Shown here one piece after another: positions 9,255 through 63,844 of a stretch of 64,000 nt of DNA. Position 1 is the stretch's first letter. Each line of letters opens with the position of its first letter. The stretch is from assembly GCA_026417375.1 (NCBI GenBank), contig JAOADJ010000008.1, positions 96,640 through 160,639 on the forward strand, written 5' to 3'. Both the position numbers and the translations under genes were made by a program. Origin of the DNA: Melioribacteraceae bacterium (GTDB lineage: Bacteria; Bacteroidota; Ignavibacteria; Ignavibacteriales; Melioribacteraceae). The notes under the pieces were generated by a model. It had not been told where the DNA came from. It ran no database searches and was given only the letters and a program-made list of their open reading frames with translations.

Positions 9255-10037
9255 ATGACTTTAAAATTTTATCAGGTTGATGCTTTTACATCAAAAGTTT
9301 TTGGTGGAAATCCCGCCGCAGTTGTTCCACTTGAAAACTGGATTGAAGATGAACTAATGCAAAAAATTGGAATGGAAAACAATTTATCTGAAACTGCTTT
9401 TTTTGTTAAAGAAAACTCAAAATATCATATCCGTTGGTTTACTCCGGTAAACGAAGTTAATTTATGTGGTCATGCAACATTAGCTTCATCTTATGTAATT
9501 TTTAATTTCATTGAAAAAGAAATTAATGAAATTGTTTTCACTTCAAAAAGTGGCGATTTAATTGTTAACCGGGAAAACTATTTGATTTCATTAAACTTTC
9601 CAATTAATCCGCCACAAAAAATTGAATTTGATGAAACAATTGAAAAAGCATTTCAGCAAAAACCAATTGAAGTATTACGCGGTGGAAACTATACACTTGT
9701 AATTTATGAAGATGAAAATTTTATTCGCAATTGCAAACCAAATTTTGAATTGGTAAAAAAAATTGATCCGCATGGAGTTATTATTTCCTCAAAAGGAAAT
9801 GAAGCAGATTTTGTAAGCAGAATGTTTGCCCCAAACGAAGGAATTGATGAAGATCCGGTTACAGGTTCTTCACATACTGTTTTGATTCCATATTGGACAG
9901 AAAAACTTAGTAAGAAAATTTTTCGTGCATTACAGGTTTCAAAACGTGGTGGCGAGTTATTTTGCGAAAACCTTGAAACCCGTGTTAAAATCTCGGGAAA
10001 TGCAGTGCTTTATGCCACGGGAAATTTATTTTTATAA
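9255..10037 (+). CDS. PhzF-family isomerase/epimerase
   Basis: VDAFT..FGGNPAAV, NLSETAF, RWFTP..EVNLCGHATLAS, EDPVTGS. Confidence 0.93.
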   Translation: MTLKFYQVDAFTSKVFGGNPAAVVPLENWIEDELMQKIGMENNLSETAFFVKENSKYHIRWFTPVNEVNLCGHATLASSYVIFNFIEKEINEIVFTSKSGDLIVNRENYLISLNFPINPPQKIEFDETIEKAFQQKPIEVLRGGNYTLVIYEDENFIRNCKPNFELVKKIDPHGVIISSKGNEADFVSRMFAPNEGIDEDPVTGSSHTVLIPYWTEKLSKKIFRALQVSKRGGELFCENLETRVKISGNAVLYATGNLFL

Positions 10038-10140
10038 AAAATTCTTGTTTTCTTAATTTTTTTTTAAATTAAAAATTAATCTCTTTTTTCTATATTTTCG
10101 ATAGAAAAAATTAGCATTTCTCTTAAGGACAGAATTTTAT

Positions 10141-11865
10141 ATGAAATTTTTTCGTGGTGTGTTAATAATATTAACTTTAGCATTTCTGTTTTCTTGCGAT
10201 GCTCCTCATTCAAATCCTGCGGATCCACAAAATCCCAATAACAAATTTGCTCAAGTTGATGGTTATGTTTTAACTTATGAACAACCACGGGTTGCAATTT
10301 CTAATGTTAAAGTAGTTTGGAAAAATCAAAACATTTTAACTTATACAGATTCAACCGGATACTTTCGGATTCAGGATGTTCAGCGAATTGATGGTAAATT
10401 GATTTTTGAAAAAGATGGATATTCAAAAGATTCATCTGTTGTAAAATGGAATAACCAAAATACCAAAAGAATAGAAACTGTATTACTTTCTTTTACTTTT
10501 GGGGATTTAGATGGATTTGTTTTAACCAACGACCAACCACAACAACCAATTTCTAAAGTTAAAGTTTATTGGAAAAATGCGAATGTCATTGCTGAAACAA
10601 ATTCAAATGGTTATTTCAAAATTGAAAATGTTCCTATTAGAAGTGGAATGATTTATTTTGAAAAGGATGGTTTTAAATCGGATTCTCTTTTAGTTGAATG
10701 GACAACTCAAAAAACCAAGCGAATTGAAAATGTTTCATTAAAATATAATGTCGGAAGTATTGATGGTTTTGTTCAAACTTCTGATTTACCAAATCAACCA
10801 ATTAATAACGTAAAAGTTTTTTGGAAAAATCAAAATGTTTTTGCTACAACAAATTCAAACGGATATTTTAAGATTGACAACGTTCCGATAAAAAGTGGAA
10901 TGATTTATTTTGAAAAAGATGGTTTTAAGAAAGATTCTCTTTTTGTTAATTGGACTAATGAAAGAAGTAAAAGAATTTCAACTGTATTTTTAGATTACAC
11001 AATTGGCTCAATTAGTGGTTCAGTTTATACAATTGCTTTTCCACGTAAACCAATTTCAAAAACAAAAATTTATTGGAAAAACAACAACATAATAACAGAA
11101 ACAGATGCTTCGGGAAATTTTAGCATAAATAATATTCCAACTCAAAACGGTTTTATTTACTTTGATAAATCAGGTTATTCACCCGATTCTGCTTTTGTTA
11201 ATTGGGGTGGAAAAAACTCAGTTCGCGTAGAAAGTTTTTTAAACGCAAATCCACAATTGGATTCTCTTTCAATCTATACAATTGTTGAAAATCGTTATCC
11301 GGATATTCAGCGCTATCGTTTACAAATAAATGCAAAAATTTCCGATGCGGAAATAAATGATATTCAACTGGTTTATGTTAATAACAATAATTTAAAAATT
11401 AATTCTCAACTCATCTATAATAACGCAACAAGATTTTATGAGAGATTATTCGAACTATCAGATTTAAACATTGCTTCAATGGATGAAGCAATAGGTGAAA
11501 ATTTTAATATTATTGTTCGTGACCAATCATCAAAATTATTTAATGTCGGTTCTTCTACTATTAAAAGAATTATCCGTCAGGAAGTTGTAATTGAAAGTCC
11601 AATTGATAGATCAACAACAACATCAAAACCAACTTTAAAATGGAAAAGATATTTACCCGGTTTTAATTTCAAATATTTAATTCAGATCTACACAGATGAA
11701 GTTTCTCCAATATTAATTTGGCAAAAAGAAAATGTTTCTAAAGATGAAATCGAAATAACTCCAAATATAAATTTACCTATTGGAGATTACTTCTGGGTTA
11801 TTTGGGTTATAGATGATTTTGGTGATCGTTGCAGAACCAAACCAGCAACATTTACAGTGAAATAA
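10141..11865 (+). CDS. Lipoprotein with four tandem carboxypeptidase-regulatory-like (CnaB-type) beta-sandwich repeats
   Basis: Lipobox LFSC; four 84-aa repeats at an exact 252-nt period (10258, 10510, 10762, 11014), each DG.V...PI..VKV.WKN....T.S.GYF.I..V......FEK.G...DS. Confidence 0.8.
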   Translation: MKFFRGVLIILTLAFLFSCDAPHSNPADPQNPNNKFAQVDGYVLTYEQPRVAISNVKVVWKNQNILTYTDSTGYFRIQDVQRIDGKLIFEKDGYSKDSSVVKWNNQNTKRIETVLLSFTFGDLDGFVLTNDQPQQPISKVKVYWKNANVIAETNSNGYFKIENVPIRSGMIYFEKDGFKSDSLLVEWTTQKTKRIENVSLKYNVGSIDGFVQTSDLPNQPINNVKVFWKNQNVFATTNSNGYFKIDNVPIKSGMIYFEKDGFKKDSLFVNWTNERSKRISTVFLDYTIGSISGSVYTIAFPRKPISKTKIYWKNNNIITETDASGNFSINNIPTQNGFIYFDKSGYSPDSAFVNWGGKNSVRVESFLNANPQLDSLSIYTIVENRYPDIQRYRLQINAKISDAEINDIQLVYVNNNNLKINSQLIYNNATRFYERLFELSDLNIASMDEAIGENFNIIVRDQSSKLFNVGSSTIKRIIRQEVVIESPIDRSTTTSKPTLKWKRYLPGFNFKYLIQIYTDEVSPILIWQKENVSKDEIEITPNINLPIGDYFWVIWVIDDFGDRCRTKPATFTVK

Positions 11866-11869
11866 TTTT

Positions 11870-13360
11870 ATGAAAAACTTTTTTGTTGAAAATATTAATC
11901 ACATAAAAAATTTATCCAAAAATGAATTCGAATCGTTATATGAATTCACTCAAATGTTAAATACAGCAAGTGGGGAAGAAACTTTAATTGAAGATGCGAT
12001 GGATATTGTAATTAATGTAATAAATGCTGAGCGTGGTTTGTTCGTAAAGTATGATGATAAAACAGATTCTTTTTCAATAATTAGTGCAAGAAAAATCTCT
12101 AACGAAAGCATTACCGATTTAAATGAATTTTCATCCGGCATTCTTCAAAAAGTTTTAAAAGAAAAAAAACCACTTCTTTATCACGATGTAATGAGTGACC
12201 CAAATTTATCACAATTTCAAAGTGTCCAAATTCACAGAATAAAATCTGTAATTGGTGTTCCTATTATTCGTGATGATAAAGTTTGGGGAATTATTATTGC
12301 AGATAGCCAACTTGACCGACGTGAATTTACAGATGAAAATCTTCTATTCCTGAATTTCTTTTCTAACTTAATTTCACTTGCATTAGATAGAATTATAAAA
12401 CTTCAAGAGCTTGAAAAAGAAAACAAAATTCTTTTCAATAAACTTCAATCTACTGAACAAATTCCGGAAATGATTGGCAACAGCCCTGTAATGAGAAATT
12501 TATCTCAACTTATTTATAAAGTTGCTCAAACCGATGCAACAGTGTTAATTACAGGAGAAAGTGGAACAGGTAAAGAAATTGCTGCAAGAGCAATTCATCA
12601 GTTAAGTAAAAGAAAAAACAAACCATACCTTGCACAATTTTGTGGTTCAATTCCGGATAACCTTCTTGAAAGTGAATTGTTCGGATATAAAAAAGGAGCA
12701 TTCACCGGCGCAAATACTGATAAGCAAGGATTACTGGAAGCTGCAGATCAAGGCACTTTTTTTCTTGATGAAATTGCTGATATTTCACAAGCGCTTCAGG
12801 CAAAACTATTACGTGTTTTAGAGAATAAAGAAATCATACGGCTTGGCGATGTAAAAGTTAAAAAAGTTGATGTAAGAATATTAGCCGCAACAAATAAAGA
12901 TCTTCAACAATTAGTTAAAGAAGGTACTTTCCGCGAAGATTTATTTTATCGTTTAAATGTTTTCCCAATTAAAATGCCACCTCTTCGTGAAAGAAGAGAT
13001 GATATTCCATTGCTTGCAAGTCACTTTGTTAAAAAAATTTCTGGAAAAGATATTTCAATTGATACTTCTGCAATTAAAAAATTAGAAAGTTATTATTGGC
13101 CCGGAAACATCCGACAATTAATTAATGTAATTCAAAGAGCTATTATTCTTTGCGATACCAATAAAATATATGCTGAACAAATTATACTTGAAGATGAACA
13201 AAGTTTAGAAAATTTCAACGGCACACTCGAAGAATTTGAAATTCTTTTACTTAAAAAAAGATTGGAACAGTTTAACGGTAATAGAACTTTAACAGCAAAA
13301 TCTCTTGATGTTTCTGTAAGATGGATTCAACTAAAACTTAAAGAACTAGGCATTCAATGA
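11870..13360 (+). CDS. GAF-domain sigma-54 enhancer-binding protein (GAF-AAA+-Fis HTH)
   Basis: N-terminal GAF; Walker A GESGTGKE; GAFTGA; Walker B FLDEI; FREDLFYRLNV; WPGNIRQL; HTH FNGNRTLTAKSLDVS. No receiver domain. Confidence 0.95.
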   Translation: MKNFFVENINHIKNLSKNEFESLYEFTQMLNTASGEETLIEDAMDIVINVINAERGLFVKYDDKTDSFSIISARKISNESITDLNEFSSGILQKVLKEKKPLLYHDVMSDPNLSQFQSVQIHRIKSVIGVPIIRDDKVWGIIIADSQLDRREFTDENLLFLNFFSNLISLALDRIIKLQELEKENKILFNKLQSTEQIPEMIGNSPVMRNLSQLIYKVAQTDATVLITGESGTGKEIAARAIHQLSKRKNKPYLAQFCGSIPDNLLESELFGYKKGAFTGANTDKQGLLEAADQGTFFLDEIADISQALQAKLLRVLENKEIIRLGDVKVKKVDVRILAATNKDLQQLVKEGTFREDLFYRLNVFPIKMPPLRERRDDIPLLASHFVKKISGKDISIDTSAIKKLESYYWPGNIRQLINVIQRAIILCDTNKIYAEQIILEDEQSLENFNGTLEEFEILLLKKRLEQFNGNRTLTAKSLDVSVRWIQLKLKELGIQ

Positions 13361-14940
13361 TTTCCGGTTTAAGTCAAGAAATATTATTTGAAAAATTTCA
13401 GATTATTGAAGTACTTAAAAAAGATGAACACGCCGCTGTTTTCCTTGCTAATCATATTTATTTAAGCAAAAAAATTATTCTCAAAGTTTTAAACACTCAA
13501 AAAATTTCTGATAACGCTTTAGTTGAAAGATTTAAAAGAGAAGCAAAAATTTTAGCTCAGCTCGATAGCTCATATATTATCAAAGTTTTAGACTTCGGTA
13601 CTTTTCAGGAATATTTCTACATCTCATTCGAATATATTGAAGGATTATCTTTAAGAAATTTGTTAAAACAAACCGAATTGACTTTTGACCAGAAAAAACA
13701 TTTAATGATTCAACTTTTGAAAGGTTTACACTACGCTCACTCAAATCAAATAATTCATAGAGATATTAAACCTGAAAACATTTTTGTTGATAATTCTCTC
13801 AACCTAAAAATTGGTGATTTTGGTTTGGCGCTTTCTTCCGAAGATAATTTTGTGACCAATCCTTATTCAATTGTTGGAACACCAAGTTATATGAGCCCGG
13901 AACAGGTTCGTGGTGCAAAATTAAATCCTCAATCGGATTTGTTTTCTGCCGGTGTTGTTTTAGTTGAATTATTCACTGGTAAAAATCCTTTCCTAAAAGA
14001 AAACGTAAGTCTTACCTTAAACGAAATCATGTCCTATGATGAATCTATAATTTTAAACGATGCAGATGATCTACCTCAGGAAATAAAAGATGTACTTTTT
14101 AATTTATTAAGAAAAAATTTAAAAGATAGATACAATTCTGCAATTGATGTTCTTAAAGATTTAGGTGTTTCATTAGATCAACCTTCCTTGGTAATTACTA
14201 AGGAAAATAAAAAAGAAAGTTTAAAGAGATGGAGAACTTTTGCTTCCCTTTTTACTGTGATAATAATAATACTTTTTTATTATGCATTAACAACCATTGA
14301 TAAATTAAAATCAACATCAACCGAAAATTTTCCAATAACCAATCAAGATAATTCCAAAAACGAACCGGCAAAAAATGAAATTGCTTCTAAAAACCCACAA
14401 CCAGAAAATATTAACTTAGAAAATCTTGATAAGCCATTAATTGAAAACAAGAATGAAATAACAACCGAAAAAAAACAAAATGATAGTTCAAATGAATTGG
14501 CAACAACAAAAAAATTAGGTTATGGTTGGTTAGATATTCGCGGGACTCTTGGTACAAGAATTTATATTAATGGAGAAGATTTTGATGTAGATCCAATCAA
14601 ACCAATTTCATTACAAGAAGGGGAATACATTATTAAATATGAAAATCCTGATTATCCGCCTCATTCTCAAAAGATAAATATTATTGCTGGTCAGGCAACA
14701 AAAATACGATTCAACTTAGATCAACAAATTGGATTCATAAATTTTGATATTCGTCCATTTGGAAAAATATTTATAAATGAAGTTTTGAAAGGGGAAACTC
14801 CTCCGCCACTGAAAATGATTAAAGTAAATCCCGGATTTGTAAGAGTATCACTAAAAAACCCAAATTATAAAGATGTTGATACATTGTTAAAAATTGAAAA
14901 AGGGGATACGATTAATTTTATTTATAAGTTTAAAAAATGA
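13357..14940 (+). CDS. Membrane-anchored Hanks-type Ser/Thr kinase with C-terminal PEGA-like domains
   Basis: ILKVL, RFKREA, HRDIKPEN, DFG, GTPSYMSPE; one TM helix (FASLFTVIIIILFYYAL); C-terminal IYING/IFINE..GETP PEGA-like repeats. ATGA overlap with the activator gene. Confidence 0.92.
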   Translation: MISGLSQEILFEKFQIIEVLKKDEHAAVFLANHIYLSKKIILKVLNTQKISDNALVERFKREAKILAQLDSSYIIKVLDFGTFQEYFYISFEYIEGLSLRNLLKQTELTFDQKKHLMIQLLKGLHYAHSNQIIHRDIKPENIFVDNSLNLKIGDFGLALSSEDNFVTNPYSIVGTPSYMSPEQVRGAKLNPQSDLFSAGVVLVELFTGKNPFLKENVSLTLNEIMSYDESIILNDADDLPQEIKDVLFNLLRKNLKDRYNSAIDVLKDLGVSLDQPSLVITKENKKESLKRWRTFASLFTVIIIILFYYALTTIDKLKSTSTENFPITNQDNSKNEPAKNEIASKNPQPENINLENLDKPLIENKNEITTEKKQNDSSNELATTKKLGYGWLDIRGTLGTRIYINGEDFDVDPIKPISLQEGEYIIKYENPDYPPHSQKINIIAGQATKIRFNLDQQIGFINFDIRPFGKIFINEVLKGETPPPLKMIKVNPGFVRVSLKNPNYKDVDTLLKIEKGDTINFIYKFKK

Positions 14941-14977: not shown

Positions 14978-16249
14978 ATGAAAAATAAAATATTAATTGT
15001 TGTTTTATTTGCGAGTGGTATTTTGCTTGCACAACCTAGCTGGATAGTTAAGCTAAATAAAATGCCCTATCCGGTAAGCGGCGGGCAAGTTGTTTATGAC
15101 CCCTCTCCGCAAAGCACTAAAGTTTACATATTTGGTGGTTATTCAGATTCACTTCAACAAGCTGTTGACTGGATTCAGGAATATGATGTTGAAAAAGATC
15201 AATGGCGTATTGTTGGCAAAATGAATCAACCGAGACAGCAATTTGTTGCGGACTTATGGCAAAACAATGTTTTATTTTTTGGTGGAACTGTTGATTCTTC
15301 AAAACAAAAAAACACAATGGAAAGTTGGAATTTTCAACCATTCACACAAACCAAAGTTGTTGATGATAATGCCAATTTTGGAAGAGCTTATTCAACAGGT
15401 CACATTATTAACGATGATCTTTATATAATTGGTGGAACTCCATCCGGAATTTCTTCAACACAACTACCATATATTACTGCCTATAATCTTAAAACAAAAG
15501 AAACCAAAATTAAATATGACTTCACTTCCGAAGATAAACCAAGAAACAGAAGTACATTTATAGTCGGGGATAATATTTACATTTTCGGTGGCTTTACAAA
15601 TGGTGTAACTGAAAGAATTCAGAAGTTTAATATAACAACCCAAAAGCTTACAGATTTACAAGAACGATTATTAACACCACGTGGTGATGCTGCGGGAATT
15701 TATAATCCTACTTATAAAAAAGGATACATTATTGGTGGGAGAAATGAAAACAGTGCTGCTCTTTCATCTGTTGAAGTAATAATGCTGAAAAATGATGGAA
15801 CTTTGAAAATTGAAGAATCTGCTAAACTAAATTATGCGCGTACAAATTTGATGGTTGTAAATTATCGTGGTGCAATTGCTGTTTTTGGTGGTAAGGATAT
15901 TAAAGGAAAAGTCGTTCCTTATGTAGAAATCCTAATAGGAGAAACTGTAAATATTAACAATGAAAAACTTCCTTCTTCTTTTTATCTTAGTCAAAATTAC
16001 CCGAATCCATTCAATCCCGAAACAATAATTGATTATCATGTTTCATTTGAAAGCAGAGTAGTTTTAAAAGTATATGATATATTAGGAAACGAAATTACCA
16101 CGCTTGTAAATGAGGAAAAAAATCCGGGTGTTTATCACACAATTTTTAACGCAAAAGATTTACCAAGCGGAATTTATATTTATAAAATTTCTATTTCTGG
16201 TAAATTTGGAAATTATTTTCAAACAAAGAAAATGACATTAATTAAATGA
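14978..16249 (+). CDS. Kelch-repeat beta-propeller protein with T9SS C-terminal sorting domain
   Basis: Signal peptide; repeated YIFGG/YIIGG Kelch motifs; C-terminal LSQNYPNPFNPETII...YDILG...K.MTLIK. Confidence 0.9.
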   Translation: MKNKILIVVLFASGILLAQPSWIVKLNKMPYPVSGGQVVYDPSPQSTKVYIFGGYSDSLQQAVDWIQEYDVEKDQWRIVGKMNQPRQQFVADLWQNNVLFFGGTVDSSKQKNTMESWNFQPFTQTKVVDDNANFGRAYSTGHIINDDLYIIGGTPSGISSTQLPYITAYNLKTKETKIKYDFTSEDKPRNRSTFIVGDNIYIFGGFTNGVTERIQKFNITTQKLTDLQERLLTPRGDAAGIYNPTYKKGYIIGGRNENSAALSSVEVIMLKNDGTLKIEESAKLNYARTNLMVVNYRGAIAVFGGKDIKGKVVPYVEILIGETVNINNEKLPSSFYLSQNYPNPFNPETIIDYHVSFESRVVLKVYDILGNEITTLVNEEKNPGVYHTIFNAKDLPSGIYIYKISISGKFGNYFQTKKMTLIK

Positions 16250-17043
16250 TAAAAAAATTTTTCTTTTCATTTTTTCTTACAACAATTTTATTTGCTCAAA
16301 CAAATAGTTTGTTAGAAGTTAAAAAACTTTATGAAGATTACGAATATGAAAAAGTTATTCAAACTTCTAATGTTTTATTAAACGATGAGCAGTTTCCGGA
16401 TTCATTAAAAATTGATTTATATTTTATGCGGGCTGTCTCTTTCTTTGCTATTGGAAATGAAAATTTATCCAAAACAAATTTTGAAAATTTATTAAAGCTA
16501 AATAAAAACTACATTCTTGATACATCAAAGCTTTCTCCCAAAATAATCAACTTTTTTGATGAAGTTAAAAAAGAATATCTAAAGAAAGAGGAAGAAAAAA
16601 TTTACTCGCCAGAAAACCTGGAAAAATTAAAACAGTTAGCCCAAGAAAGAGAAAATGAACTGAAATATTCCGTTTTAAAAAATATTTTTCTGCCGGGATG
16701 GGGACAAGTTTCTCTCAACAATCAAAATAAAGGTTACGCTTTAATAGGACTTTCAATTTCAAATTTAGTTGCAGCTTTTTATTATATATATGATACTAAC
16801 AAAAAAGAAAATGATTACCTCTCCGAAATTGAAAAAACTTTAATTCCTCTAAAATATTCACGTTATAACGATTCATACAAAAAGAGAAATGTACTATTAA
16901 GTACTTTTGCATTTATTTGGCTTTACTCTCAGCTAGATTTGTTATTAAATGAAAAATACAAAGTTCAACAAAACTTACCTGAAATTAATTTGATATACGA
17001 TAGTAATAAAAATTATAAACTAAATTTTCTTTTAAGATTTTGA
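16246..17043 (+). CDS. Exported protein with TPR-like N-terminus and hydrophobic C-terminal region (FLPGWGQ motif)
   Basis: Signal peptide LLFAQ; helical N-terminal half; KNIFLPGWGQV followed by hydrophobic segments; overlaps the upstream stop codon. Confidence 0.65.
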   Translation: MIKKFFFSFFLTTILFAQTNSLLEVKKLYEDYEYEKVIQTSNVLLNDEQFPDSLKIDLYFMRAVSFFAIGNENLSKTNFENLLKLNKNYILDTSKLSPKIINFFDEVKKEYLKKEEEKIYSPENLEKLKQLAQERENELKYSVLKNIFLPGWGQVSLNNQNKGYALIGLSISNLVAAFYYIYDTNKKENDYLSEIEKTLIPLKYSRYNDSYKKRNVLLSTFAFIWLYSQLDLLLNEKYKVQQNLPEINLIYDSNKNYKLNFLLRF

Positions 17044-17078
17044 GTGAATATCCTTCGTTTCGGGCGAAAATTTTTCGC
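17044..17078. promoter_or_regulatory. Candidate tandem upstream activator sequences for a sigma-54 activator
   Basis: GTGAA-TATCC-TTCGT (17044-17058) and perfect dyad GCGAA-AATTT-TTCGC (17064-17078); centres 20 bp apart and about 120-140 bp upstream of the predicted start site. Confidence 0.55.
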
Positions 17079-17163
17079 ACCATTTTGAATTTGTTTTTAA
17101 ATAGAATCAATTAAATTCTTTGTTTTTAATCAATTAACTTAATAAAATAATTGGTTAATAAAA

Positions 17164-17179
17164 TGGCACAATCATTGAA
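17164..17179 (+). promoter_or_regulatory. Sigma-54 (-24/-12) promoter
   Basis: TGGCAC-AATCA-TTGAA versus consensus TGGCAC-N5-TTGCW; GG at 17165-17166, correct spacing, -12 base is A instead of C; AT-rich tract between it and the dyads. Confidence 0.65.
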
Positions 17180-17189
17180 ACAATAAATG

Positions 17190-17268
17190 CACACACACAC
17201 AACGGACTCCGTCCTTAAGATTGGCGAAGGGTAAAAAGTTTAAGATGTTCCTTCGCCTTCTTTTTTTT
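17190..17268 (+). ncRNA. Candidate ~80-nt sigma-54-dependent small RNA
   Basis: Begins 12 nt after the -12 element with (CA)6, then a short GGAC/GTCC or ACGG/CCGT hairpin, then GGCGAAGG (17223-17230)/CCTTCGCC (17250-17257) stem followed by TTC and T8. No plus-strand gene follows. Confidence 0.5.
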
Positions 17269-17299
17269 AAAGAATTTTTTTAATGAGTTAATTTTTTTG

Positions 17300-19726
17300 T
17301 TATAAAACCGGCGTGTTAATTCCAATCACAAAATTATTAAGCCCTTTGTAATTCAATTTCCATGTAAATTCAATTCTGAACGGAAATAGTTGTTGTCCCA
17401 ATCCAAATCCAATTTCTGCAAATGGTTTTTTGAATTCTGAAATTTTATTTGTTAATACATTTGTGGGTAAAATATTTTTACTTTGTTGTGAAGCTTCAAT
17501 ATATGAAGTGTTAAAATGAATACTAAAATTCATTTGCCAATCAATTAAAAAGGATAATCCCAATAGTCGGAAAAGTTCATCATTTAAATTATTTTCAACT
17601 GATAACATTATTACTTTGTCACCAAAAACTTCTCTTGTTCTTAACGTTCTGAAAGTAAATGATTGGCTACCGCTTTCAATATTTCCGGGTAGAGCAAAAA
17701 GCATTTGGTATGGAATTGCGTTTGTAGATTTAATACCAATTATTGAAAACCTTGTGCTTGCTGATTCAATTAATGGAAATGATCCGTTAATATTTAGTCT
17801 ATATGTTTCAAAATTTAAATCGCTTTTTAATATTTCTTTGTTACTAAAAATTGCTGAACCTCCGAATGTTATGAATCCATTTCCACTTCCAATTCTTCTT
17901 CTGAAATATCCATCTTCAATAAATTTTCTAAAATCGAATTGAAAAGATGTTGTAATTGCATTTATTCTTGTATTATAGATCGGTTGATTTACTGAATAAG
18001 ATTTATTTCTGTTTAGAATTGAGAAATCACTATTGTTACTTGCAGAATTATCTGTTCGGTTAAAATATCCTATTCCCAAATTCAAAATTGGAATTACCTG
18101 GCTTTGAACTGATAAACTAAATCCTTTGGTGTAATAATAATTTCTAAAATCATATTTACCTAAAACAGAGGTTAGTGTTGAAGTCAGTTTATTATATCTT
18201 ATTGATTCAGTAAATAAATCGGTTAGTTTATTAAAAAGGGAAAAAGAAATATTTGTTGTTCTATAATCTCCTAACAAATAATTAGCAGTAATACTTTGTT
18301 TAAATTTTTTATCACTAAATCCAAATGATAAATCCAAATCAGCGTTAAATCTTTTATCAAAAAGCTGAATTGCATTACCTCCAAAATTTAAAGCATGACC
18401 TTCGACATTATTGAAAGAATAAATTGATAACGGACCATAAACAGAAAAATTTTTATTTATTGATATTGTAGTTGAAAGTATAGAAAAGTTATCCCAAAAA
18501 GTTTTTTCAATTGCTTCTAAACTATCTATTCTTTTGTATGCTGCAAGTTCCTCTTCTGTATTTGGTATTGTTTGAATATTTCTCCAATAAGTTGAATCTC
18601 TTTTATCTGCATCAGCTTTTACTTTTATAACTGTCATGTCAAAAAATTTTTCATCGATGTTACTGTTAATTTTATAATCAAAGAAAATTGAATTTAATTC
18701 AAAAGCAAATTTGAATAATCCCATTGGATTACCTTCCACATTAATTCTATAATCAATTGGCATCACAATGTTGTTTTCAAATGGTGTGAACTGTTGAATA
18801 ATATTTATCTTGTTAAAAATTCTTCCGGGATTTGCCGGATCATTTAGCCCTGCTTCGAGTTTAACCAAATTGTATGTTTTATCAGAAATGTAAAGTGTTC
18901 CAACAAAACCGGGATTAATTCTTTTCAATGGTTCAAATTTTATTTTGAATACATTTTGTTTATCCATTGCAAGTGTATCTTCAATAAAATAATCATAATA
19001 CTCAATTGCTTCATCGGCTATTGGACTTAACAAAGGACGATTAAAAAACCGAATGTCATCTGTGTAGAAATTTTGAATTAATCTTCCGCCGGTAAATATA
19101 TTAATTGTAGATGGTGTATTTGCGCTTTGTTTTCTTGCTATTATTTCATCTTTATAAAAATTTGGTTTTTTATAATAACCACGGCTTTCATTTTCAATTA
19201 ATCCAGTAATTTTAAGTTTTGATGAATCGCCACTTGAATCGCCAACAGCAACACTAACTTGAGTTCCGCTTGAATTAAAATCTCTTACTGTTTTTATTAT
19301 TCCTTTTGTATAAGCACTAAAAATGTAAGAATCAATTTTTTGATTTCTTTCATGTTTCGCTTCAATTACTCTTCTTATTATTTCAAGTGCTGGGTTTTCT
19401 CCGGGTAAAACAGTTATTTCAGAAAGATTAATTGGAACTGGTTCTAATTTGATTTCTAAAAATTTATCAGTAGTGAGTTTTACATTTATCGTATCTGAAA
19501 TATATCCAATGTTCGAAACTATTAATTTATAATTTCCTTTTTCTAATCTTAATTGAAATAATCCATCAAATGTTGATGCAGTTCCATAATTTGTTCCGGC
19601 AACACGAATATTAGAATAAGCAAGTGCTTGGTCATTATTTTTATCTGTTACTTTCCCTTTAATTAAAAATTGTTGAGCATTAATTTGAAATGTTACTATC
19701 AAAAGAATGAAATAGAGGAACTTCAT
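17300..19726 (-). CDS. DUF5686-like outer-membrane protein with N-terminal carboxypeptidase-regulatory-like domain
   Basis: ATG at 19726 after AGGAG; signal peptide; KGKVTDK...LAYSNI...GTAS..DG.F.L; IIRRVIEAK; C-terminal beta-barrel with KKPFAEIGFGL. Confidence 0.8.
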   Translation of the reverse strand: MKFLYFILLIVTFQINAQQFLIKGKVTDKNNDQALAYSNIRVAGTNYGTASTFDGLFQLRLEKGNYKLIVSNIGYISDTINVKLTTDKFLEIKLEPVPINLSEITVLPGENPALEIIRRVIEAKHERNQKIDSYIFSAYTKGIIKTVRDFNSSGTQVSVAVGDSSGDSSKLKITGLIENESRGYYKKPNFYKDEIIARKQSANTPSTINIFTGGRLIQNFYTDDIRFFNRPLLSPIADEAIEYYDYFIEDTLAMDKQNVFKIKFEPLKRINPGFVGTLYISDKTYNLVKLEAGLNDPANPGRIFNKINIIQQFTPFENNIVMPIDYRINVEGNPMGLFKFAFELNSIFFDYKINSNIDEKFFDMTVIKVKADADKRDSTYWRNIQTIPNTEEELAAYKRIDSLEAIEKTFWDNFSILSTTISINKNFSVYGPLSIYSFNNVEGHALNFGGNAIQLFDKRFNADLDLSFGFSDKKFKQSITANYLLGDYRTTNISFSLFNKLTDLFTESIRYNKLTSTLTSVLGKYDFRNYYYTKGFSLSVQSQVIPILNLGIGYFNRTDNSASNNSDFSILNRNKSYSVNQPIYNTRINAITTSFQFDFRKFIEDGYFRRRIGSGNGFITFGGSAIFSNKEILKSDLNFETYRLNINGSFPLIESASTRFSIIGIKSTNAIPYQMLFALPGNIESGSQSFTFRTLRTREVFGDKVIMLSVENNLNDELFRLLGLSFLIDWQMNFSIHFNTSYIEASQQSKNILPTNVLTNKISEFKKPFAEIGFGLGQQLFPFRIEFTWKLNYKGLNNFVIGINTPVL

Positions 19727-19823
19727 TAAAACTCCTGACGAATTATTATTTAAAAAACATAAACAATATATGCTGTTAAAAAGATTCATATTTTAATATC
19801 TGTTATTAACCAAAAAAAATAAT

Positions 19824-63430: not shown

Positions 63431-63815
63431 GATTCTTGTTGGGCAATTGATTCGCAAACTGCGAGTAGGAAAGTCCGAACACCAAAGAGCAAGGTGCCGG
63501 GTAACGCCCGGGGTTCCAATGGTGTTGGAATACGGAAAGTGCCACAGAAAATATACCGCTCCACAATAGTGGAGTAAGGGTGAAAAGGCGAGGTAAGAGC
63601 TCACCGCATCGATAGTAATATCGATGGCAGGGTAAACCCCACTTGGTGCAAGGTCAAGTAGAGAGCATCTTTTAGGACAAAGTTGCTCGCTTTGATTTCC
63701 TTCGGGAAATTGCTTTCGGGTAGACCGCTTGAGTCTGAAAGTAATTTCAGACCTAGATAAATAATTGCCACTCCGATTTTATCGGAGAACAGAATTCGGC
63801 TTATAGACAAGAATC
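63431..63815 (+). ncRNA. rnpB: RNase P RNA, bacterial type A
   Basis: P1 GATTCTTGT/ACAAGAATC; AGGAAAGTCC, GAAAGTGCCACAGAAA, GGGTGAAA, GGTAAGAG, GGTAAACCCC, CAAGG, ACAGAATTCGGCTTA. Confidence 0.97.
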
Positions 63816-63844
63816 TTAATTTCTCTTCTGCTTCCAAGGGATAT

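Follow-up and report, generated by a model that had tools for sequence, protein, structure and literature searches.

The Qrr RNAs of Vibrio are short, terminated small RNAs (sRNAs) that are transcribed from sigma-54 promoters under the control of one dedicated activator, LuxO; the qrr1 gene adjoins luxO, and the RNAs exert feedback on messenger RNAs (mRNAs) of their own pathway. In Enterobacteria, the glmY gene adjoins the operon of its sigma-54 activator GlrK/GlrR (QseE/QseF), and tandem activator sites are located upstream of it. The crcZ gene of Pseudomonas immediately follows cbrB and requires both RpoN and CbrB, and the CrcZ RNA can also arise by read-through from the upstream gene followed by processing (PMC5113210). 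In Myxococcus and relatives, pxr lies downstream of the sigma-54 regulator gene nla19, is preceded by a sigma-54 promoter, and yields an RNA that occurs in a long form and, after processing, in a short one (PMC5568312). Here we describe a comparable locus in a Melioribacter/Stygiobacter-like Ignavibacteria genome from a hot spring. The analysed stretch of 64,000 nucleotides (nt), which is part of contig JAOADJ010000008.1 of GenBank assembly GCA_026417375.1 and is referred to below as the window, contains a predicted enhancer, a predicted sigma-54 promoter and a predicted RNA of ~79 nt, all downstream of a gene for a sigma-54 activator. With good confidence, these elements form a sigma-54- and enhancer-dependent transcription unit yielding a conserved non-coding RNA. 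The RNA is very probably a new regulatory small RNA of a known general type, representing a new family.

The RNA of the window is set apart from Qrr, GlmY, CrcZ and Pxr by the phylum in which it occurs, by an activator with a GAF instead of a receiver domain, by a Hanks-type instead of a histidine kinase, and by the anatomy of the RNA itself. It has in common with Qrr a dedicated sigma-54 activator with an adjacent sRNA, and a pairing with the lipoprotein gene of its own cassette, discussed below, would be a similar local feedback. However, the Qrr RNAs are Hfq-dependent, contain four stem-loops and a conserved 32-nt region, are limited to the Vibrionaceae and are governed by an activator under phosphorelay control, and the locus described here gave no Rfam match to them. 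GlmY differs in its action as a decoy of the RapZ protein, in its overlapping sigma-70 and sigma-54 promoters and in its structure, again with no Rfam match here. The similarity to CrcZ of the CbrA/CbrB system lies in an sRNA that adjoins the gene of its own sigma-54 activator on the same strand and has an RpoN promoter with activator sites upstream (PMC5113210). Nevertheless, CrcZ has a length of ~400 nt, carries several A-rich motifs and sequesters Hfq/Crc, and its activator is a response regulator with a histidine kinase, whereas the RNA of the window has ~79 nt, a single CA-repeat/CUCC stretch and a GAF activator with a Ser/Thr kinase, resembles CrcZ neither in sequence nor by Rfam, and belongs to another phylum. 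Pxr is likewise an sRNA of ~100 nt, encoded directly 3' of a sigma-54 regulator gene, with a predicted sigma-54 promoter and enhancer and conservation within one clade (PMC5568312), but it contains three stem-loops and no CA repeat, its sequence is unrelated, and its regulator Nla19 is an NtrC-like response regulator.

Full-text literature searches turned up no description of sRNAs under sigma-54 control in Ignavibacteria or related taxa, and the regulatory RNAs of Ignavibacteria, as well as their sigma-54 dependence, are apparently undescribed as far as the literature searches reach. The locus is a further instance of a sigma-54 activator with an adjacent sRNA and involves no new principle. 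If our reading is true, a Hanks-type kinase and a GAF activator would be connected to an RNA output, a wiring that is undocumented among the known sigma-54-dependent sRNAs CrcZ, Qrr, GlmY and Pxr. The locus offers a compact testable case, in which the enhancer (RCGAAAAATATTCGY twice, 20 bp apart), the promoter, the ~79-nt RNA and the presumed cognate activator lie within 5.5 kb.

The original prediction, which was made from the letters of the window, had described two dyads 20 bp apart, an AT-rich tract of ~85 bp, the element TGGCAC-N5-TTGAA, a CA run, a GC stem and a U8 tail, followed by a convergent gene. All of these features were found as described (Table 1). The next gene is an open reading frame (ORF) at 17300-19789 on the minus strand and is therefore convergent with the RNA gene, and on the upstream side the stop codon of an ORF of 265 aa occupies 17041-17043, as read from the sequence between 16800 and 17500. 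The two dyads are 20 bp apart from centre to centre, the AT-rich spacer that follows them is probably a site of DNA bending or looping, and 11 nt separate the promoter from the CA run. The run continues into ACGGACTCCGTCC in the sequence of the window, and the elements downstream of (CA)6 are, in order, ACGGACUCCGUCC, UUAAGAUU, a stem of GGCGAAGG/CCUUCGCC enclosing a 19-nt loop, and UUC followed by U8. The locus thus combines a -24/-12 spacing, tandem inverted repeats upstream, and an AAA+ activator with a GAFTGA loop and a DNA-binding domain, as is characteristic of sigma-54 systems; the predicted RNA has its own promoter, an intrinsic terminator (a GC-rich stem with U8) and no conserved ORF, as would a discrete sRNA.

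Within the window, the exact motif TGGCAC-N5-TTG has a single match, at 17164, and the exact motif CGAA-N5-TTCG also has a single match, which is the proximal dyad. The (CA)6-type run is unique as well (chance expectation 0.05). When up to one mismatch was allowed, seven matches to the promoter motif were seen versus 8.3 expected, which is chance level, and the 25 matches to the dyad versus 18 expected were not above chance. Judged by these counts, the significance of the promoter and the dyads lies in their combination and in their conservation, and not in the matches within the window taken by themselves.

The conservation was studied in 12 distinct loci, consisting of the window and 11 related loci, with duplicates counted once. 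L001 and L002 were found by a protein-based genome scan with the activator, L081-L088 by an exact-pattern metagenome scan using 20 specified bases of the RNA core, and L089-L092 by a protein search with the 265-aa protein and subsequent contig look-ups. In all 12 loci the RNA lies directly 3' of the 265-aa orthologue of the same cassette; L087 and L088 lack the Kelch gene of the cassette. Among the loci, the RNA keeps 85-100% identity, with differences almost confined to the terminator loop, and its neighbours are diverged (39-77% identity for the 265-aa protein and 33-81% for the kinase). The conserved block is composed of (CA)4-6, a linker of 4-6 nt, CUCCGUCCUUAAR, the GC stem and the U tail. 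Conservation begins at the CA run and stops a few bases past the U tail, and the flanks diverge sharply. In agreement with this, Logan contigs of other samples match the window solely over 17189/17192-17268, with unlike flanks, and each of them carries TGGCAC-N5-TTG[A/C]A just 5' of the RNA. A covariance model built for the RNA (CM R1) scored 52-112 bits, with matches at the RNA slot only, and found no RNA homologue in the more distant activator-orthologue loci L003-L027. By this comparison, the RNA is confined to a clade whose activators are roughly at least 80% identical.

A sigma-54 promoter motif of the form [T/C]GGCA[C/T]-N5-TTG[C/A/T], with exact spacing of its elements, was present in 12 of 12 loci, and in all of them 10-12 nt separate the -12 base from the CA run, with an intervening sequence that differs by lineage. 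A promoter motif at a fixed distance combined with a variable spacer sequence is the hallmark of a promoter together with its transcription start. At -12, seven loci have the dinucleotide GC, four (the window, L086, L001 and L002) have GA and one has GT. The proximal dyad, close to RCGAAAAATATTCGY, was also found in every locus with 0-1 mismatch, and its centre lies 51-122 bp upstream of the first T of the promoter. A distal dyad with 0-2 mismatches is located exactly 20 bp from it in 11 of the 12 loci (in L081 only the proximal one is clear), and the distance of the distal centre from the promoter is variable (80-142 bp). The spacer between dyads and promoter is unconserved in sequence and varies in length. 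A search for dyad pairs returned one pair in the window and one per RNA locus, except for L081, which remained below the threshold, and one extra pair in L082. In 1.18 Mb of control loci only two pairs were found, one of which (L004:15167) lies in the homologous slot of a distant relative. Because the tandem pairs are kept in 11 of 12 loci as opposed to two per 1.18 Mb, the sequence comparison indicates that the enhancer is real and tied to the promoter of the RNA. An operon terminator formed by the proximal dyad was considered and rejected by eye, as the 5-bp stem is weak, a U tract is mostly missing, and there are two dyads at a fixed distance of 20 bp. In L002, a run of N at 9282-9370 splits the enhancer region, and the proximal dyad is partly present on both sides of it; the duplicated dyad looks like a scaffolding artefact.

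Table 1. Positions of the RNA locus, the upstream cassette and the STAS genes of related loci. Positions refer to the window unless another locus is named.
Feature	Position	Strand	Remarks
PhzF-like protein	9255-10037	+	Pfam
Candidate target site	10121..10162	+	Initiation region of the CarboxypepD_reg lipoprotein gene, ATG 10141
Lipoprotein with four CarboxypepD_reg repeats	10141-11865	+	Pfam; ATG 10141
GAF / sigma-54 AAA+ / HTH_8 enhancer-binding protein, 496 aa	11870-13360	+	Sigma54_activat 6e-70, GAF_2 1e-15, HTH_8 1e-4; presumed activator
Hanks-type Ser/Thr kinase with C-terminal PEGA domain	13357-14940	+	Pkinase 5e-51, PEGA 9e-11
Weaker sigma-54-like element TGGTAC-AATAC-TTGAA	14942-14958	+	20 nt 5' of the Kelch/T9SS gene, in the 37-nt gap between the kinase and Kelch genes
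Kelch-repeat protein with type IX secretion system (T9SS) sorting tail	14978-16249	+	Pfam
265-aa protein, signal peptide and hydrophobic segments	16246-17043	+	No Pfam match
Distal enhancer dyad GTGAA-TATCC-TTCGT	17044-17058	.	1 mismatch to CGAA-N5-TTCG
Proximal enhancer dyad GCGAA-AATTT-TTCGC	17064-17078	.	Family consensus RCGAAAAATATTCGY
AT-rich spacer, 85 nt	17079-17163	.	86% A+T versus 71% for the whole window
Predicted sigma-54 promoter TGGCAC-AATCA-TTGA	17164-17178	+	GG at -25/-24; GA instead of consensus GC at -13/-12
Predicted RNA, ~79 nt	17190-17268	+	(CA)6, motif, terminator stem, U-rich tail
(CA)6 run	17190-17201	+	Predicted 5' end of the RNA
Single-stranded conserved motif CUCCGUCCUUAAG	17207-17219	+	Within the RNA; from alignments of homologues
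Terminator stem GGCGAAGG paired with CCTTCGCC	17223-17230 with 17250-17257	+	8-9 bp, GC-rich, 19-nt loop
U-rich tail TTC+T8	17258-17268	+	End of the RNA
STAS gene, L086	6748-7110		Oriented coordinates
STAS gene, L002	9828-10190
STAS gene, L091	9104-9472
STAS gene, L092	9101-9469

The predicted fold of 17190-17268 has a free energy of -20.3 kcal/mol (z = -2.8). The minimum free energy and centroid folds both give the terminator only, and the seed-like 5' region is unpaired. The hairpin at 17223-17257 was not reported by a simple terminator scan, because its 19-nt loop exceeds the loop limit of 8 of the tool. The small hairpin GGAC-UCC-GUCC exists in the window, but it does not hold as a conserved element, since the 4-bp GGAC/GUCC stem is broken in L091 and L092 (GGAC to CAAG) without a compensating change. 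Both of these loci keep CUCCGUCCUUAA and the CA run. The uncompensated loss of the hairpin suggests that the conserved unit is the single-stranded stretch (CA)n...CUCCGUCCUUAAR. The latter part of it resembles an anti-Shine-Dalgarno sequence, with YUUAAGGACGGAG as its complement. The alignment of the RNAs contains no conserved ORF, and a small peptide starting from the ATG at 17243, the only one in the RNA, was rejected, as this ATG is missing in most relatives. The original prediction had not recognised the RNA family, and Rfam does not contain a match either: a search of the whole window at the gathering threshold gave none at the RNA locus, and a search of 16900-17400 with E values up to 10 gave just two spurious eukaryotic matches on the opposite strand.

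The gene product encoded at 11870-13360 is the presumed activator of the RNA promoter. It contains the motifs GESGTGKE (Walker A), GAFTGA (loop) and FFLDEIAD (Walker B), and its orthologues in the scorable sRNA-bearing loci L001, L002, L081, L086 and L087 are 81-95% identical, with L086 (95%) being the closest relative of the window. The activator is syntenic with the RNA in every locus long enough to display it, and binding of the dyads is proposed on the basis of this strict synteny. The kinase gene, whose start overlaps the stop of the activator gene, is kept in the cassette of the relatives, and the kinase is a candidate for the signal input to the activator. With regard to the GAF activator/kinase system that had been proposed for this locus, the activator part is thus borne out by the Sigma54_activat and HTH_8 domains and the GAFTGA loop, while the kinase turned out to be a Hanks-type Ser/Thr kinase with a PEGA domain and not a histidine kinase. 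The proposed order of an enhancer, a sigma-54 promoter and a short, terminated non-coding RNA linked to activator and kinase genes gains support from the 11 other loci.

Transcripts were sought in assembled contigs. RNA-labelled sequencing runs of relatives from other environments contain the RNA, and in six studies the ends of the RNA-labelled contigs cluster at the C of CUCC (-2 to +5 nt); neither the CA run nor the promoter is covered by these contigs. Such ends fall on the C of CUCCGUCC at 7729 in L082 (stored coordinates) and at 5750 in L081, which corresponds to window position 17207. In X19 an Illumina adapter directly follows the C of CUCC, and in X30 a contig of 409 nt ends on that C. 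In the downstream direction, the contigs reach 60-410 nt through the terminator, in X30 into the coding region of a gene for a STAS-domain protein, and the peat contigs extend 60-275 nt past the terminator. We read these data as transcripts of relatives that begin at or shortly upstream of CUCC, some of which pass the terminator. Libraries of the RNase-H/deoxyuridine triphosphate (dUTP) type typically lose 10-20 nt at the 5' end. The ends at CUCC may therefore be due to library loss or another artefact, or they may represent a processed form comparable to Pxr-S; by analogy, ends located 16-17 nt inside the RNA could be the counterpart of the short form of Pxr. The sequencing depth in X8 was discarded as a measure of expression, as the RNA depth there is about as low as that of the neighbouring genes and the contigs include the promoter.

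On balance, we lean towards a stand-alone riboregulator that depends on sigma-54 and the activator and acts via its conserved single-stranded 5' region. According to this reading, the GAF domain, the PEGA-domain Ser/Thr kinase or both would sense a signal that turns on the activator. This protein, which is encoded ~3.7 kb upstream in the same cassette, would control the transcription of the RNA by sigma-54 RNA polymerase: its dimers would occupy the two dyads (17044-17078), two helical turns apart, leading to assembly of the ATPase ring, and the ring would loop over the AT-rich 85-bp spacer to the closed complex at TGGCAC-N5-TTGA. Transcription would start at ~17190 on the CA run and stop at the GGCGAAGG/CCUUCGCC-U8 terminator, giving the ~79-nt RNA. 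The first ~30 nt, unstructured and nearly invariant, would serve as a seed for UG-rich and/or AAGGA(C)GGAG-like sites at ribosome-binding regions, and pairing with mRNAs encoded elsewhere would alter their translation or stability. In the lineage of the window, a possible target is the first gene of the cassette itself. What the data show is the anatomy of the locus with its conservation, spacing and synteny, the lack of a conserved ORF and of an Rfam match, and the occurrence of the RNA in metatranscriptomes of relatives with a 5' boundary close to the predicted start; we infer which activator binds the dyads, what the kinase does, that the RNA acts in trans, and its seed and targets.

The best pairing of the 5' 34 nt of the RNA with the translation-initiation regions of the window was found at this first cassette gene, which encodes the lipoprotein. 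Here, GUCCUUAAGA of the RNA has a perfect complement in UCUUAAGGAC at 10121-10130 (-20 to -11 from the ATG), and the CA run has a complement in GUGGUGUGU at 10154-10162. When the initiation regions of each locus were ranked by their pairing with the seed in compact target windows of 26 nt, the lipoprotein gene ranked 1/44 in the window, 1/12 in L001, 1/14 in L002, 1/11 in L089 and 2/10 in L081; its ranks were 3/5 in L087, 9/15 in L092 and 13/13 in L091. A Fisher combination of the rank fractions gave a post-hoc combined p of ~0.02-0.03 before L091 and L092, in which the idea failed, were added. The pairing site in L001 and L002 is GAGUCCUUGUGUGU in the 5' untranslated region, and the candidate sites in different loci use different parts of the seed. 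This ranking across the loci found no universally conserved mRNA target in the cassette, and a sliding 60-nt scan along the loci was noisy, with many sites near -20 kcal/mol. We regard the site at the lipoprotein gene as a tentative, lineage-specific candidate target only, because L091 and L092 lack it and L087 has a weak version, because the seed parts differ, and because shuffled seeds scored about as well in a 120-nt scan (mean of minima -22.6 versus -25.3 for the real best).

Besides these gaps in the candidate target, several observations weigh against a stand-alone riboregulator. The -12 dinucleotide is not the consensus GC in the window and the three other loci with GA, and an alignment of the homologues revealed no covariation in any stem, the terminator stem being invariant; of the stem-by-stem covariation output, the rows of the small hairpin alone were used, as the bracket notation of the long stem was one column out of register. 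The exact sequence of the window was found in DNA runs only and in no RNA run. The RNA evidence consists of assembled contigs without strand information, from libraries in which short RNAs are depleted. The observed 5' ends are 16-17 nt downstream of the predicted +1, with the CA run unseen in those contigs, and the terminator is read through into the STAS gene in relatives. Finally, X8, X10 and X28 also contain sequence of the promoter or of the upstream 265-aa gene, as might result from carried-over DNA or from operon transcripts that read through.

The STAS gene provides the basis for the alternative that survives best, in which the RNA is a cis-acting 5' leader or attenuator of this gene, which encodes an anti-sigma-factor antagonist. 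The sigma-54 promoter would then serve the STAS gene, the RNA and its terminator would set the level of read-through, perhaps via a protein that binds the CA/CUCC stretch, and the leader would be orphaned in the window. A STAS-domain gene of 123 aa is found on the same strand, 85-230 nt past the terminator, in L086, L002, L081, L082, L088, L091, L092 and probably L087, that is, in 7-8 of the 11 related loci including the closest relative of the window. One X30 contig covers CUCC, the terminator and STAS coding sequence without a break, the peat contigs likewise pass the terminator, and in L004 and L011 a protein gene, with an orthologue in L013, is located directly behind the homologous enhancer and promoter. 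The original prediction had itself pointed out that a protein gene after the CA tract of homologous loci would make the RNA the leader of a lost gene; such a gene is indeed there in relatives, yet three genomes without it, among them that of the window, keep the RNA. In its place, each of the window, L089 and L001 has a convergent neighbour of its own, different from the other two, and the RNA, the promoter and the enhancer are intact in all three despite diverged flanks, which argues that the RNA is independent of the downstream genes. Moreover, the terminator is strong and invariant, and no convincing antiterminator pairing was seen by eye, so that the features of an attenuator are lacking. 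The spacer between terminator and STAS gene, variable in length and sequence, has a conserved promoter-like motif of its own (TTTTCTAATT...TATATT, 35-45 nt 5' of the ATG), and wherever synteny is broken, the break separates the RNA from the STAS gene and in no case from the cassette. We therefore consider a leader function doubtful.

The loci with a protein gene in the slot are distant relatives, with activators 60-69% identical to that of the window (63-69% for L004 and L011). In L004 (15167-17490) and L011 (6716-8774), the dyads and the sigma-54 promoter after the 265-aa orthologue precede a gene for a ~720-aa CarboxypepD_reg/T9SS protein, and CM R1 detected no RNA homologue, nor is there a CA run, in this slot. 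An orthologue of the ~720-aa protein is also present in L013 (16272-17780), and the protein is absent from the RNA-bearing loci. One enhancer/promoter slot would thus hold, depending on the lineage, a secreted protein, a small RNA, or a small RNA with read-through into a STAS gene. Beyond the STAS gene, the relatives encode a PAS histidine kinase, a second sigma-54 response regulator, another STAS gene and a SpoIIE-type phosphatase.

A more elaborate form of the riboregulator reading takes up this variation. The kinase and the GAF activator would form a self-contained module of a hitherto undescribed kind, whose sole enhancer-bound local output is the riboregulator; the latter would have taken over the promoter slot that drives a secreted CarboxypepD_reg/T9SS protein in sister lineages. 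The invariant CA tail, rather than being a pairing seed, would be a recognition or processing signal for an RNA-binding protein or an RNase of this phylum, its removal exposing the anti-Shine-Dalgarno-like CUCCGUCCUUAAG seed at a new 5' end. Such a removal would explain why the 5' ends of the RNA map exactly at the CUCC motif. We regard this proposal, taken as a whole, as speculative and rather unlikely.

A further alternative is a decoy that sequesters a protein. In this case, (CA)n and CUCCGUCCUUAAR would bind an RNA-binding protein (an Hfq-type distal-face (AN)n binder or a protein of the KH, RRM or CSD type), and sigma-54-driven bursts of the RNA would titrate this protein off its mRNAs, by analogy with CrcZ and Hfq/Crc. 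The near invariance of all positions outside the terminator loop, including a dinucleotide repeat, is more than one mRNA target needs and would suit such a function, as would the lack of a universally conserved mRNA target in the cassette and the fact that the architectural analogue CrcZ acts as a decoy (PMC5113210). However, each molecule would offer one short site, compared with the several repeated motifs of known sponges: the 79 nt contain one CA run and one CUCC, and none of the GGA or A-rich (AAnAAnAA) motifs of those RNAs. No candidate protein was identified. In addition, a conserved 5' seed followed by a terminator, as present here, is the classic layout of base-pairing sRNAs. A decoy function appears improbable to us on these grounds.

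The last alternative does away with the gene: the hairpin would just terminate the upstream operon, and the resemblances to a promoter and to dyads, like the CA run, would have arisen by chance in an AT-rich intergenic region. This view could appeal to the chance-level matches in the window alone and to a contig in X28 that extends, like an operon transcript, from the 3' end of the RNA upstream into the 265-aa gene, but the comparative data make it implausible and very unlikely, as 12 of 12 loci keep the elements at fixed spacings while the intervening sequence varies, the conserved block starts at the predicted +1 and not at the stop codon of the operon, and the RNA contigs of six studies end near the predicted start and extend no farther in the upstream direction.

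In the cassette upstream of the RNA, the weaker sigma-54-like element in front of the Kelch gene is retained by L002 and L081 as TGGTAY-N5-TTGA, whereas L001 and L086 show a degenerate version; in more distant orthologous loci its position is taken by TGGCAY-N5-TTG. The dyad-pair search found no pair upstream of this site. The lipoprotein gene at the head of the cassette (10141-11865 in the window; 2164-3129 in L001, 864-3089 in L081 and 1689-3635 in L091) spans from ~320 to 741 aa among the relatives. Its size varies through gain and loss of CarboxypepD_reg modules of ~85 aa, and the lipoprotein signal peptide and the C-terminal domain are constant. The first 29 nt of this gene (ATGAAATTTTTTCGTGGTGTGTTAATAAT, 10141-10169, plus strand) are identical in the X8 strain contig, in which 11 of the 25 following nt differ, and in the distant locus L081 the stretch TTTTTTCGTGGTGTGTTA of the gene is identical including synonymous positions. 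This pattern suggests that the start of the lipoprotein gene is under constraint at the nucleotide level.

Two minor observations were made in the course of the searches. A fragment of this Ignavibacteria-type activator, with 62% identity, was found in L018 (JBQVMC010000143.1, 2.8 kb), which belongs to a metagenome-assembled genome labelled as a Methanosarcinaceae archaeon and is most likely a binning contaminant. The sole match at the Rfam gathering level in the window is a full-length bacterial RNase P class A RNA at 63431-63819 on the plus strand, with a score of 295.9 bits.

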